A stretch of DNA of 64,000 nt from a bacterium (GCA_965213625.1 CBDBZU010000004.1:544001-608000), one strand, 5' to 3'. Numbered from the stretch's first letter, positions 58,868 to 62,062 are shown. The notes: generated from the sequence alone by a model not told the origin. Made by a program: numbers and translations.

Positions 58868-59896
58868 TCAAGCGGAAAAGTGCTCCCAAGCCAAGTTTTC
58901 CAGAATGAAAATCCCGTCTGCGCGCTTGAGAGAAATCCCCTCCGAGTCCGGAAGAATTTCCCCGATGGGGGTGAGTGGTCCCCCTCCAGAACTTCGAACG
59001 ACTTCTTGAAGAGCGCAAACGGATTTAGCGGGCGTTGTGACGAGAAGCTCGTAATCTTCACCGCCATGCAGCGCCCACTCGCTGGGCTTTTTCTCGGCGA
59101 CCGAGGCTACTTCGAGCAGGGCGCCGGAAACGGGTAGTTCGGATTCCCAAATAATAGCACCTACCCCGCTCGATTCACATAGGTGACGAATATCGCCCGC
59201 CAGACCATCGCTGATATCCATCATCGCGGTGGCAAGCCCCGATTCCGCGATGGCTGCCCCCTCCGCCACGCGAGGCTGCGGCTCGAATTGCGCGCGGGTG
59301 AGCGAGGGACGTACCCCTTCGGGTAGTTTTATGTGCTGCCTGGAAGACAAAAATAACCCCGCGGCGGCATCACCCAAACGCCCCGTCACCAGAATCCTAT
59401 CTCCCACGTGAGCACTGCTTCTACGGAGCACCTTCTCTTCCATAATCTCGCCGACGAGAAACACGTCGACGAACAATGGGCCACTTGTCCGGGTGACGTT
59501 TCCGCCCAGAATCAATATTTTGTATTGCTCCGAGAGAGCGCGAACCCCGCCATACACATCATCCAGAAAAGAAACCGCCGTCTCCTCGGGAATGCCCAAC
59601 GAGATGAGTGCAAAGCGTGGCTTTCCTCCCATGGCCGCCACATCGCTCACATTCACAGCCAGCGACTTGTAACCCACGGCGAATCCCGAAACATCCCCCG
59701 TGGACGGGAAATGCACGCCACCTACCTGCGCATCACACGTCACAACCCAACATTTTCCATCCGCCGCCTTGATGACGGCCGCATCATCTCCGTTGCCTAC
59801 GATGACGTCTGTATCGTTCCCCACCGATCCGAGTACGTCTCTTAGACGCTCTATCAGGGCGAATTCGCCGATCTCACCAGCCGACTTGCCACTCAT
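58868..59896 (-). CDS. thiL: Thiamine-monophosphate kinase
   Basis: GEFALI, GDDAA, NVSDVAAMGG, MDISDGL, GGEDYEL. Confidence 0.95.
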   Translation of the reverse strand: MSGKSAGEIGEFALIERLRDVLGSVGNDTDVIVGNGDDAAVIKAADGKCWVVTCDAQVGGVHFPSTGDVSGFAVGYKSLAVNVSDVAAMGGKPRFALISLGIPEETAVSFLDDVYGGVRALSEQYKILILGGNVTRTSGPLFVDVFLVGEIMEEKVLRRSSAHVGDRILVTGRLGDAAAGLFLSSRQHIKLPEGVRPSLTRAQFEPQPRVAEGAAIAESGLATAMMDISDGLAGDIRHLCESSGVGAIIWESELPVSGALLEVASVAEKKPSEWALHGGEDYELLVTTPAKSVCALQEVVRSSGGGPLTPIGEILPDSEGISLKRADGIFILENLAWEHFSA

Positions 59897-60537
59897 CCTT
59901 TCGCCCTCTCAATACGATTGCACAATTCCCTTGTCGCGGCTTCCGGGTTCGGTGCCCCCATAACCGCGCCGATTACAGCTACGCCGGTGGCGCCGGCTTC
60001 GATGACGGGCTCCACGTTCTCGATACCGATTCCTCCGATGGCGACGGCGGGCAAACCAGGGGCGTGTTCGATAATCCGCCGAAATCCTTCCGGCCCAATC
60101 GGCTCTCTCGCATCGGCCTTGTTGCCAGTCGCGTAGATGGGACCTACGCCGATATAATCTGCATCCTCAGCGGCGGCTCGCGACGCCCATTCGGATTTTC
60201 CGGCTGTTACGCCGTAAAACAACGTATCTCCGCCTATCGCCCTAGCCCTCGGGAGTGGGAAATCCTCCTGTCCCAGATGCACCCCCTCCGCGCCACACGC
60301 CATGGCGACGTCCAACCGATCATTCACCGTCAAAGCACAGCCGGTTCCCTCCAGAGCATCTCGCAATTCATCAGCCAAGCGAATCATCTCCACACCACTC
60401 ATATTTTTTTCGCGAAGCTGGACCATGCCGGCCCCACTCATCGCGGCTGCCCGAACCGCGTCCCTCAGCTTCCATCCGGAAGCCTTCGCCAGAACCTTGC
60501 GGTCGGTAATGACAACCAGCGATGGGTCGAATTTCAT
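59893..60537 (-). CDS. thiE: Thiamine-phosphate synthase
   Basis: VQLREK, VNDRLD, GVHLGQED, YIGVGPIY.T.NK, AIGGI; overlaps thiL start. Confidence 0.92.
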   Translation of the reverse strand: MKFDPSLVVITDRKVLAKASGWKLRDAVRAAAMSGAGMVQLREKNMSGVEMIRLADELRDALEGTGCALTVNDRLDVAMACGAEGVHLGQEDFPLPRARAIGGDTLFYGVTAGKSEWASRAAAEDADYIGVGPIYATGNKADAREPIGPEGFRRIIEHAPGLPAVAIGGIGIENVEPVIEAGATGVAVIGAVMGAPNPEAATRELCNRIERAKG

Positions 60538-60726
60538 GGCGTCCCTCAAACAGACAAGAGCAAAACTACCACGTTGATAATGAAACACGACTACCATGAT
60601 AAGCAAGACAAGCCATGTTGAAGAATACATTTATCAATGAGAGGAGAAAAAATAATGAGGGATGTATCTCTTGCGTATTTCTTTCATGCTTGAGAATCTC
60701 TTCTCCTATCTTAAAAGGAGAGCATC

Positions 60727-61326
60727 ATGAGTTGGATCCAACCCATTTCTCCGGATGCCGCGGAGGGAGAAACAAAAGAAATAATCGAAGGCCTGCGCAA
60801 AGCGAGAAAACCCATTCCCAAAATGTTTCTGGAGATGGGCAGAAGACCAGGCATTCTGGCCGGGCGTGAAATGCTCCGCAGTTCCGTTCATGGCGGCTCG
60901 AGCCTCGGAACGAGGCGGGCTGAGTTGCTTGCCTTCTACGTGGCAGCACATGGGGGGTGATACGGCTGAGCGATGAACCACGGGCAGTTGTTCCGTGACA
61001 AATGCGATGGCGCCACAACCGTTGAAGTAGCCGAGGTGCTGGACGACCCGAAGCGCGCAGGTATCCTCGACCCCGCGGACCGCGCCATGCTCGCCTATGC
61101 GGAGAAAATCACCCATACGCCCCACCAAATGGAAAAAACGGATATCGAGCATTTGAGGCGCGTCGGTTTCAGCGAGGAAAACATCGTTGACATCATATCG
61201 GCTGCGGCCTACAGAAACTTCGCCAACACAATCAACTACGCCTTCGGGCACGTGGAGCAAAATCCCGAAGGACCCGAGGAGTTGAATGCCGCCATCCAGA
61301 GGTTGAAAAAGAGAATTCGTGTCTAA
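60727..61326 (+). CDS. AhpD/CMD-like peroxidase-related protein, probable selenoprotein with UxxU motif (199 aa by readthrough)
   Basis: ORFs 60727-60960 and 60973-61326 are in one frame joined by TGA-TAC-GGC-TGA-GCG; the TGAs sit at the CxxC positions before the conserved His; AAGGAG RBS at the first start only. Confidence 0.85.
60979..60997 (+). promoter_or_regulatory. Candidate bacterial SECIS hairpin
   Basis: CACGG-GC-AGTT-GT-T-CCGTG; G-containing apical loop 16 nt after the second TGA and 25 nt after the first. Confidence 0.55.
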
Positions 61327-62062
61327 TAAATCACTAGCCTTGTCATCAATCTCGTATGTGGGCCTGTTCATATCGGGCGCTTGCGCGCTGGCCGCGGCGG
61401 CATCGGGACTGGGCTATCGCTGGGGATTTTGGCATTTCAGCGCCGGGTTTCAGATTTTCAAGTCCGCATCCGTTATCGCTCTGATCTCAGTCGCCGTATC
61501 CATGGCAGGTGGGCTATTTGCCCTGCGCGACGCCTCGAGATTGAGAACCGTCTGCGCCGCTCTCGGCATCGCGCTGGGTTTTACCGTAGCAGGATTTCTG
61601 TATTCGCACATGCAAATTGCGAGACGGGTGCCCAAGATTCACGACATCACCACGGACACCCGAAACCCTCCCGCTTTTCAAACCGTTCTTCCACTCAGAA
61701 AAGGAGCGAAAAACCCTCCTGGGTATGAGGGTGTGCGCATTGCGCGGCTCCAGATAAAAGCGTATCCAGACATCAAGCCAGTCATATTCCGGGATTCAAA
61801 AGAGGAAGTTTTCAAGCGCACCCTGGACGCCGCACGCGCTATGGATTGGCATGTGGTGTCATCAAAACCGACCGCAGGACGCATCGAGGCCTATGACTCG
61901 ACTTTCTGGTACGGCTTCATCGACGACATCGTTATACGGATCACGTCGAGTAACGGATCGACGCGCCTCGATATCCGCTCGAAATCCCGCGTCGGCGTCG
62001 GCGACATCGGTGCGAATGCCAGACGAATTCGCGGATTTTTCGAAAAGCTGAAAGTGAGATAG
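61319..62062 (+). CDS. DUF1499 domain membrane protein
   Basis: Three N-terminal TMs; PKIHDITTD..NPPAF, AYPDI, GFIDD, DIRSKSRVG..DIGANARRI. Confidence 0.9.
   Translation: MSNKSLALSSISYVGLFISGACALAAAASGLGYRWGFWHFSAGFQIFKSASVIALISVAVSMAGGLFALRDASRLRTVCAALGIALGFTVAGFLYSHMQIARRVPKIHDITTDTRNPPAFQTVLPLRKGAKNPPGYEGVRIARLQIKAYPDIKPVIFRDSKEEVFKRTLDAARAMDWHVVSSKPTAGRIEAYDSTFWYGFIDDIVIRITSSNGSTRLDIRSKSRVGVGDIGANARRIRGFFEKLKVR

Follow-up and report, generated by a model that had tools for sequence, protein, structure and literature searches.

A probable two-selenocysteine form of an AhpD-like protein, encoded by a gene with two in-frame UGA codons in Nitrospinota-labelled bacteria

Results

A single reading frame containing two in-frame TGA codons

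The window analysed here is a 64,000-nucleotide stretch of bacterial DNA (GCA_965213625.1, CBDBZU010000004.1:544001-608000), and positions are counted from its first letter. Between 60727 and 61326 the + strand contains a single frame of 199 codons followed by a TAA stop codon (61324-61326), given readthrough of two TGA codons. The features of the locus are as follows.

60715..60720, + strand: Shine-Dalgarno-like AAGGAG, 6 nt 5′ of the ATG, read from the sequence
60727..61326, + strand: AhpD-like gene (TIGR01926, CMD superfamily) with two in-frame UGA codons, assigned from HMM matches, dN/dS and predicted fold
60958..60960, + strand: codon 78, the first UGA within the frame, aligned with the first Cys of CxxC
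60967..60969, + strand: codon 81, the second UGA within the frame, aligned with the second Cys of CxxC
60979..60997, + strand: SECIS-like hairpin, stem CACGGGC/G(U)UCCGUG (7 pairs and a bulged U), loop AGUU at 60986-60989
61004..61024, + strand: possible second hairpin, in most UxxU orthologues 34 nt beyond the second UGA, its register shifted here
61319..62062, + strand: gene for a DUF1499 membrane-anchored protein (PF07386, 84.7 bits), overlapping the AhpD-like stop by 8 nt

The local DNA reads ...ELLAFYVAAHGG-TGA-TAC-GGC-TGA-GCG-ATG-AAC-CAC-GGG..., and the peptide around the motif, with UGA written as U, is V-A-A-H-G-G-U-Y-G-U-A-M-N-H-G. Translation with table 11 splits the frame into an ORF at 60727-60960 (77 aa) and an ORF at 60973-61326 (117 aa), the second of which starts at an ATG one codon (GCG) beyond the second TGA. 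The original prediction that these two ORFs are one frame with two TGA codons was confirmed by reading of the sequence and by the conservation described below. It had also expected gene callers to split the gene, and this is what was found. When the readthrough protein was used as the query in a word search, all 25 database proteins were C-terminal fragments of 117-120 aa. Annotation pipelines thus split the gene everywhere, and with its database entries truncated in this way the active site is absent from public protein sets.

TGA is the stop codon of 38 of the 70 long open frames in the window, and several orthologues of the UxxU gene themselves end with TGA. Elsewhere, then, TGA acts as an ordinary stop, and a reassigned code in which TGA is a sense codon was rejected. 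Contigs from RNA libraries (four runs) cover 60600-60843 and 61423-61628 with 90-99% likeness; the UGA region lies outside this coverage.

The DUF1499 gene, whose product is hydrophobic in its N-terminal part, occupies this position in 20 of 24 UxxU loci; in the third genus carrying the UxxU gene, a search of the 1.5-kb flanks did not reveal it. No terminator-like site was seen on the + strand between the AhpD-like and DUF1499 genes, and the DUF1499 gene is likely to be an operon partner. Upstream and divergent, at 58868-60630 on the - strand, are a thiamine-phosphate synthase gene (PF02581) and an adjoining ORF with a weak match to the selD family (AIR-synthase-like; 72.6 bits, below the cut-off), which is probably a thiL-type kinase. 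These upstream genes look like ordinary housekeeping neighbours. Inspection of the neighbouring genes revealed no ahpC or reductase gene adjoining the UxxU gene.

Protein family, active site and predicted fold

The readthrough protein (P0001) was searched with C in place of U. It matched NCBIfam TIGR01926 ('peroxidase-related enzyme') with 92.2 bits (cut-off 81.8), residues 2-178 aligning with profile positions 1-176 of 178, and Pfam CMD with 24.6 bits (cut-off 23). A sequence search of the PDB gave seven distinct chains at E <= 0.01. Both TGA codons fell on Cys columns in the three best of these, 6k40, 3c1l and 2oyo, whose motifs are CVYC, CYYC and CLYC respectively, each followed by the conserved His-Gly. 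The same was true of full-length metagenomic homologues, in which both TGA positions likewise lay on the Cys columns of CxxC, so that the predicted alignment of the two TGA codons with Cys was upheld in both sets of homologues.

HMMER comparison with 1.84 billion cluster representatives yielded 1270 matches at E <= 0.001, two of them at E <= 1e-30. The best match was a C-terminal fragment of the UxxU gene itself, and the best full-length match, P0027, was 42% identical and carried the motif C-I-G-C. A further match of 82 aa, P0054, was 78% identical over the first 50 residues of the gene product and divergent beyond; its appearance is that of a metagenomic copy with a frameshift or an assembly error.

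In an alignment of 18 sequences C78 and H85 were at least 90% conserved, and in an alignment of 84 sequences H85 was invariant and E66 at least 90% conserved. E66 and U78 are separated by 12 residues, and U81 and H85 by four. The proton relay is described as Glu36, Cys48, Cys51 and His55 in PA0269, and as Glu118, Cys130, Cys133 and His137 in Mycobacterium tuberculosis AhpD (PMC3141380); the Glu-12-Cys and Cys-4-His spacings of both proteins are those of the UxxU protein. As judged from the alignments, the predicted proton-relay residues Glu66 and His85 are kept.

The AlphaFold2 model (pLDDT 96.0, pTM 0.90) is all-helical, with 10 helices, and the motif lies at the N-terminal end of helix 79-92. 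Foldseek comparison of the model with the PDB placed 6k40 first (E 2.3e-07, TM 0.75/0.80), followed by 2prr, 2oyo and 3c1l, and the debrominase Bmp8 and streptococcal AhpD appeared lower in the list. Structural alignment gave 21-26% identity to Cys-type AhpD-like proteins. The predicted model thus has the AhpD-like helical fold of TIGR01926/CMD, together with the arrangement of CxxC, His at +4 and Glu at -12, with U78 and U81 at the Cys columns. Neither HMM searches nor Foldseek produced an AhpC-TSA or thioredoxin family match that would indicate a thioredoxin-like or peroxiredoxin fold; the fold is CMD/AhpD helical instead. A peroxidase function is suggested by the family name only, and the same fold includes the debrominase Bmp8.

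Conservation and selection

Of the 51 genomes of the phylum, 24 contained an orthologue with both TGA codons, with 52-99% identity to the window protein (stops read through). All 24 genomes belong to one bacterial family: 19 of 23 genomes of the window's genus (its own genome included), the single genome of a second genus, and four of five genomes of a third. All 24 contain the motif G-G-U-Y-G-U-A-[M/V/I]-N-H-G. Seven metagenome contigs likewise have TGA at both sites. A Cys codon at either UGA site was found in none of the 24 orthologues and in none of these contigs. The 9-nt spacing of the two TGA codons is conserved, and the two codons between them show synonymous changes only (TAC/TAT and GGC/GGT). 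No frameshifts or further stops were present in the orthologues.

Nei-Gojobori estimates were made for the 210 pairs of 21 orthologues, between which dS is about 0.7. The dN/dS ratio before the first TGA was 0.17 for all 21 sequences and 0.12 within the genus, and after the second TGA it was 0.23 and 0.15 respectively. These low ratios on either side of the TGA codons indicate that both halves are translated and constrained. Related genomes therefore conserve both TGA codons and, as shown below, the hairpin. The opposite pattern, in which close relatives have Cys and this copy is under relaxed selection, was not seen, since the nearest Cys/Cys homologue is 42% identical and selection is purifying.

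The gene is missing from three complete genomes of the window's genus, and can thus be lost. One further genome, G010, contains two identical remnants, L047 (G010:C4:125642-128890) and L048 (G010:C5:834462-837710). In both, an in-frame internal deletion joins the first 10 residues to approximately residue 115 onward, the UYGU motif is gone, and the thiE and DUF1499 neighbours are retained.

To survey a wider range of genomes we used the pattern G-U-Y-G-U-x-x-N-H-G, the general pattern U-x-x-U-x-x-x-H-G having too few fixed bases. With one genome per species (185,579 species), the scan gave 23 stretches. Nineteen of these were the UxxU gene, in MAGs labelled 'Nitrospinota bacterium', 'Nitrospinaceae bacterium' or 'bacterium', and the other four were rejected as chance matches with frames full of stops. 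A scan of metagenomes gave 88 stretches; of the 80 loci among these that were analysed, seven hold the UxxU gene and 73 are chance matches. As far as searched, the UxxU form is confined to one family of Nitrospinota-labelled bacteria.

A SECIS-like hairpin downstream of the two UGA codons

The hairpin at 60979-60997 begins 18 nt downstream of the first UGA and 9 nt downstream of the second; the corresponding distances to its loop are 25 nt and 16 nt, an exact match to the G-loop hairpin of the original prediction. Its calculated dG is -7.6 kcal/mol, and the range across UxxU sequences is -5.7 to -10.5 kcal/mol. The loop is AGUU in the window and GGUC in the other two genera.

Thirty sequences were aligned over this region, comprising 21 UxxU orthologues, four CxxU paralogues and five more distant CxxU relatives. 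RNAalifold predicted one helix, in the same place in all 30 sequences. Over eight pairs, 80.1% of cells were paired, as against 31-55% when the partners were slid, and the loop G (alignment column 36) was invariant in all 30 sequences. Compensatory changes affected two upper pairs, each in one sequence, and the five core pairs hardly vary, which leaves little covariation. Because conserved codons for His-Gly and Phe-Arg overlap the stem, the protein accounts for some of the conservation seen there, and conservation alone is no proof of the hairpin. The rate of synonymous change was also lower here. In the 15 codons past the second TGA dS was 0.29, compared with 0.77 in the remaining C-terminal part, and within the genus the values were 0.22 and 0.64 respectively. 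This 2.5-3-fold reduction over the hairpin region points to an RNA constraint laid over the coding constraint.

In the bSECIS model as published, the loop is 3-9 nt, the upper stem 4-16 bp and the spacing from the UGA 16-37 nt (PMC13188914, Fig. 2 legend), with a G as the first or second base of the loop and G or U after it, and an MFE of <= -7.5 kcal/mol (PMC13188914). The hairpin agrees with this description in its loop of 4 nt, its stem of seven pairs plus bulge, its G at the second loop position followed by U, and its spacings of 16 and 25 nt. The MFE of -7.6 kcal/mol is borderline with respect to the -7.5 threshold, and some orthologues have values of -5.7 to -6.8. When 60950-61030 was folded alone it was no more stable than shuffled sequences (z = +1.0). 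Support for the hairpin comes from its position, its conservation and the reduced dS, and not from its energy. The only Rfam matches were two to lncRNAs, at chance level (E 0.48 and 3.2), and no bacterial SECIS family was seen among them.

When a wider window was given to RNAalifold, another fold was preferred, in which upstream CAYGG and ACGGCUG are paired with the 3′ arm of the hairpin. The two helices proposed in this fold show no compensatory change, and with either UGA in the A site the upstream arm would lie inside the ribosome. The long-range fold was rejected as the acting element, although it may form in free mRNA.

Other SECIS-like hairpins in the genome, with folds read by eye, place the start of the loop roughly 16-21 nt downstream of the UGA. 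Those following the UGA codons of three AhpD-like paralogues and of selD have loops of GGUC, GUU or GGA, GGUC being the loop of two hairpins after the single TGA codons of AhpD-like CxxU genes/selD. The 25 nt from the first UGA of the UxxU gene to its loop is longer than the spacing in five other SECIS-like hairpins of the genome.

For the possible second hairpin at 61004-61024, 90.5% of cells were paired in the 21 orthologues, a value equalled by 93 of 500 shuffles. A double change in orthologue L028, from Asp/Ile to Glu/Phe, keeps the pairing and provides one compensatory pair.

Selenocysteine machinery

The genome, which is 96.6% complete, contains all four of the selA, selB, selC and selD genes whose presence the original prediction required. 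Profile scores were 564.4 bits for selA, 47.9 bits for selB (a frame of 652 aa) and 333.5 bits for selD (contig C4, 1518852-1519814), which is of the Sec type with an in-frame TGA of its own. There is one tRNA-Sec, with a UCA anticodon, an 8-bp acceptor stem, a 5-bp T stem and a G discriminator (RF01852, 75.9 bits).

ARAGORN reported 46 tRNAs, among which tRNA-SeC(tca) and tRNA-Cys(gca) occur once each, the latter being an ordinary tRNA of 75 nt. RF01852 gave one match over the cut-off. The weaker matches fall on ARAGORN tRNAs, mostly ordinary ones, with two exceptions, at C4:107280-107392 (113 nt), where ARAGORN finds nothing, and at C4:2289134-2289207. A second selC-like tRNA was thus not found by ARAGORN or RF01852, though at 96.6% completeness a missed tRNA is possible. 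In five other UxxU genomes the orthologous tRNA-Sec, again with G as discriminator, was the only one present; in G055 it occurs twice, in identical copies.

At least four further AhpD-like CxxU genes, with one in-frame TGA each, lie on contig C4 of the same genome, at 2409920-2410492, 2711600-2712112, 1594507-1595022 and 3156749-3157273. These paralogues and the Sec-type selD fit a very selenoprotein-rich organism, and Nitrospinota MAGs are reported to be among the richest bacterial selenoproteomes in BSepDB, with 48-54 genes (PMC13326102).

Relationship to CxxU paralogues

The gene at C4:2409920-2410492 is a CxxU sister paralogue, 47% identical to the UxxU protein, and a C-Y-G-U paralogue of this kind is found in most genomes of the family. 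All 30 aligned orthologues and paralogues have TGA at the site of the second UGA, and the site of the first UGA is TGC or TGT in the CxxU paralogue clade. In a quick tree the UxxU group and the C-Y-G-U paralogue group formed one clade with SH-aLRT support of 100%. The more distant relatives examined, five family f4 loci (L034-L038) and three distant paralogues from the same genome, are all CxxU. Within the joint clade, quick trees gave weakly supported (83-87) nesting of the CxxU paralogues among UxxU lineages, and a single UxxU clade was not rejected by the AU test (p 0.178), so that one origin of the UxxU form is possible. On the simplest reading, a CxxU gene was duplicated within one bacterial family, and a single TGY-to-TGA change then produced the UxxU form.

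All UxxU sequences have a His three residues before the first Sec position (His75, codon 75, 60949-60951), in the context A-A-H-G-G-U, whereas in the CxxU sister paralogue this residue is Ile or Leu (A-T-I/L-G-G-C). The region of codon 75, CAY-GG, is a third copy of the sequence of the 5′ arm of the hairpin.

Discussion

Selenocysteine is the most likely reading of UGA 78 and UGA 81, to judge from the sequence comparisons. The alignment of both codons with Cys, their conservation and the presence of the Sec machinery are all in favour of this interpretation, which was that of the original prediction. We consider it likely that the gene encodes a cytoplasmic AhpD-like (TIGR01926, CMD superfamily) oxidoreductase in which both residues of the CxxC motif are Sec (U78-Y-G-U81), inserted by way of a single hairpin. 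SelB and Sec-tRNA(Sec) would read both UGA codons, guided by the hairpin at 60979-60997. Sec81, the counterpart of the single Sec in the CxxU relatives, would take the place of the nucleophile. In M. tuberculosis AhpD the nucleophile is the second Cys, and Sec81 presumably corresponds to Cys133 of that protein. Sec81 may then attack a peroxide, a sulfenic acid or the disulfide of a partner, and Sec78 would resolve the intermediate to give an intramolecular diselenide instead of a selenenylsulfide, with some reductant regenerating the enzyme.

A more elaborate proposal, which we regard as tentative and on balance doubtful, is that one SECIS drives two SelB-dependent insertions three codons apart, that the change from CxxU to UxxU was accompanied by retuning of the hairpin and by the new His at -3, and that the product is a natural diselenide enzyme with a dedicated low-potential reductant. 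The retuned hairpin would be the form with a closed 4-nt GU loop and a bulged U, perhaps assisted by a downstream helper hairpin, and the reductant might be linked to the membrane protein DUF1499, whose gene is probably co-transcribed. The Prx-like protein SelL has been reported to contain a diselenide, and diselenides to have very low redox potentials (PMC2397514), which makes a dedicated reductant a fair expectation.

Among the alternatives to two selenocysteines, the one that survives best is that one or both UGA codons are read as Cys or another residue, either by near-cognate readthrough or by a SelB-dependent tRNA of the tRNA(ReC) type, so that the protein is in practice CxxU, UxxC or CxxC. 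We consider this improbable. Such a reading is suggested by the report that tRNA(ReC)-like genes are commoner in genomes with UXXU hydrogenases, in which either UGA might be read as Cys (PMC13582414), and by the first UGA being farther from the hairpin than the other UGA codons examined in the genome. Set against this are the single tRNA-SeC and single ordinary tRNA-Cys among the 46 tRNAs, the lack of anything else over the RF01852 cut-off, and the restriction of the five other UxxU genomes to the orthologous tRNA-Sec with its G discriminator; U73 is the mark of tRNA(ReC). In addition, a change from TGA to TGY requires one base, yet none of 31 sequences shows it. The tRNA survey weakens the Cys reading and does not remove it.

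Still less probable, and in our view very unlikely, is a split gene, in which translation would end at the first UGA, or at both, to give a 77-residue peptide and a separately initiated protein of 117 residues. The 25 database fragments of 117-120 aa would fit such an arrangement, as would the ATG one codon past the second TGA in the window's genus. In other genera, however, this ATG is replaced by GUC, AUU, GUA or AUA (L028, L044, L045 and L100), so there is no conserved start codon, and neither piece would contain the redox motif. The conserved 9-nt spacing with only synonymous changes in between also speaks against termination, as do the full-length homologues, which are single chains, and the prediction of the whole chain as one domain (pLDDT 96). 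A pseudogene, in which two nonsense mutations struck a decaying AhpD-like gene, might be suggested by the two deleted copies in G010 and the three genomes of the genus that lack the gene, but it is effectively refuted, as is a chance double nonsense mutation, which the original prediction had thought unlikely, by retention of both TGA codons in 24 genomes at 52-99% identity with dS of about 0.7, dN/dS of 0.12-0.23 on both sides and no frameshifts or other stops.

This is a real, conserved and mis-annotated gene, in which the resolving Cys appears to have followed the catalytic Cys into Sec, in a family given as single-Sec by the catalogues consulted, which date from 2005 on. The CxxU sister in the same genomes makes a natural matched pair with which to ask what the second selenium buys. 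With UGA codons 9 nt apart, and 16 and 25 nt from one hairpin, the gene is also a compact natural test of the spacing tolerance of SelB, and of whether one SECIS can serve twice in quick succession.

Comparison with known selenoproteins and AhpD proteins

Proteins of the Cys type, including DR1765 (6k40), 2oyo, 3c1l, 2prr, PA0269 and M. tuberculosis AhpD, share the predicted fold and the Glu...CxxC...His spacing of the UxxU protein, but have Cys at both positions and only 21-26% identity to it in the structural alignment. In Deinococcus radiodurans a DR1765 deletion mutant is described as sensitive to H2O2, and the CxxC cysteines as needed (PMC8945050). In contrast to Cys-type AhpD-like systems, there is no AhpC partner gene near the UxxU gene.

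Two UGA codons three codons apart, standing for a CxxC pair, are likewise found in SelL/Prx-like proteins, NF041115, FmdB and the UXXU group 4 [NiFeSe] hydrogenases. These have thioredoxin-like, HMA, zinc-ribbon and hydrogenase large subunit folds and a different chemistry, and none is of the CMD/AhpD type; SelL/Prx-like proteins resemble the UxxU AhpD-like protein in the motif only. For the UXXU hydrogenases one downstream SECIS has been proposed to serve both UGA codons (PMC13582414).

The closest known system is the CxxU AhpD-like family. AhpD-like selenoproteins were reported as CxxU from the Sargasso Sea in 2005 (PMC1088965) and, with 299 sequences, from the GOS data (PMC2398784, Table 2), and 'AhpD-like 1' (COG2128/YciW, TIGR01926) is catalogued as CxxU with one Sec (PMC13188914, PMC9312934, PMC2398784, PMC1088965). 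The existence of single-Sec AhpD variants, assumed in the original prediction, is thus well documented. Its view of UxxU motifs as rare needs tempering, since they are catalogued for several other bacterial families; in the tables of these catalogues the UxxU entries are only Prx-like oxidoreductases, the metal-binding protein NF041115 and an FmdB-family protein. Full-text literature searches returned no two-Sec AhpD-like protein, though supplements or BSepDB may list one.

The UxxU gene has the same HMM family, the same fold and the same Sec at the second motif position as the CxxU family, and the CxxU relatives likewise have a SECIS-like hairpin over the His-Gly codons. It differs in that the first motif residue is also encoded by UGA. 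Its hairpin is tighter, with a 4-nt [A/G]GU[U/C] loop and -5.7 to -10.5 kcal/mol, whereas that of the sister CxxU paralogue is weaker, with a loop of 7-9 nt and -3.0 to -6.4 kcal/mol. The UxxU AhpD-like gene is not a new kind of system; it is very probably the two-Sec form of a known one-Sec family.
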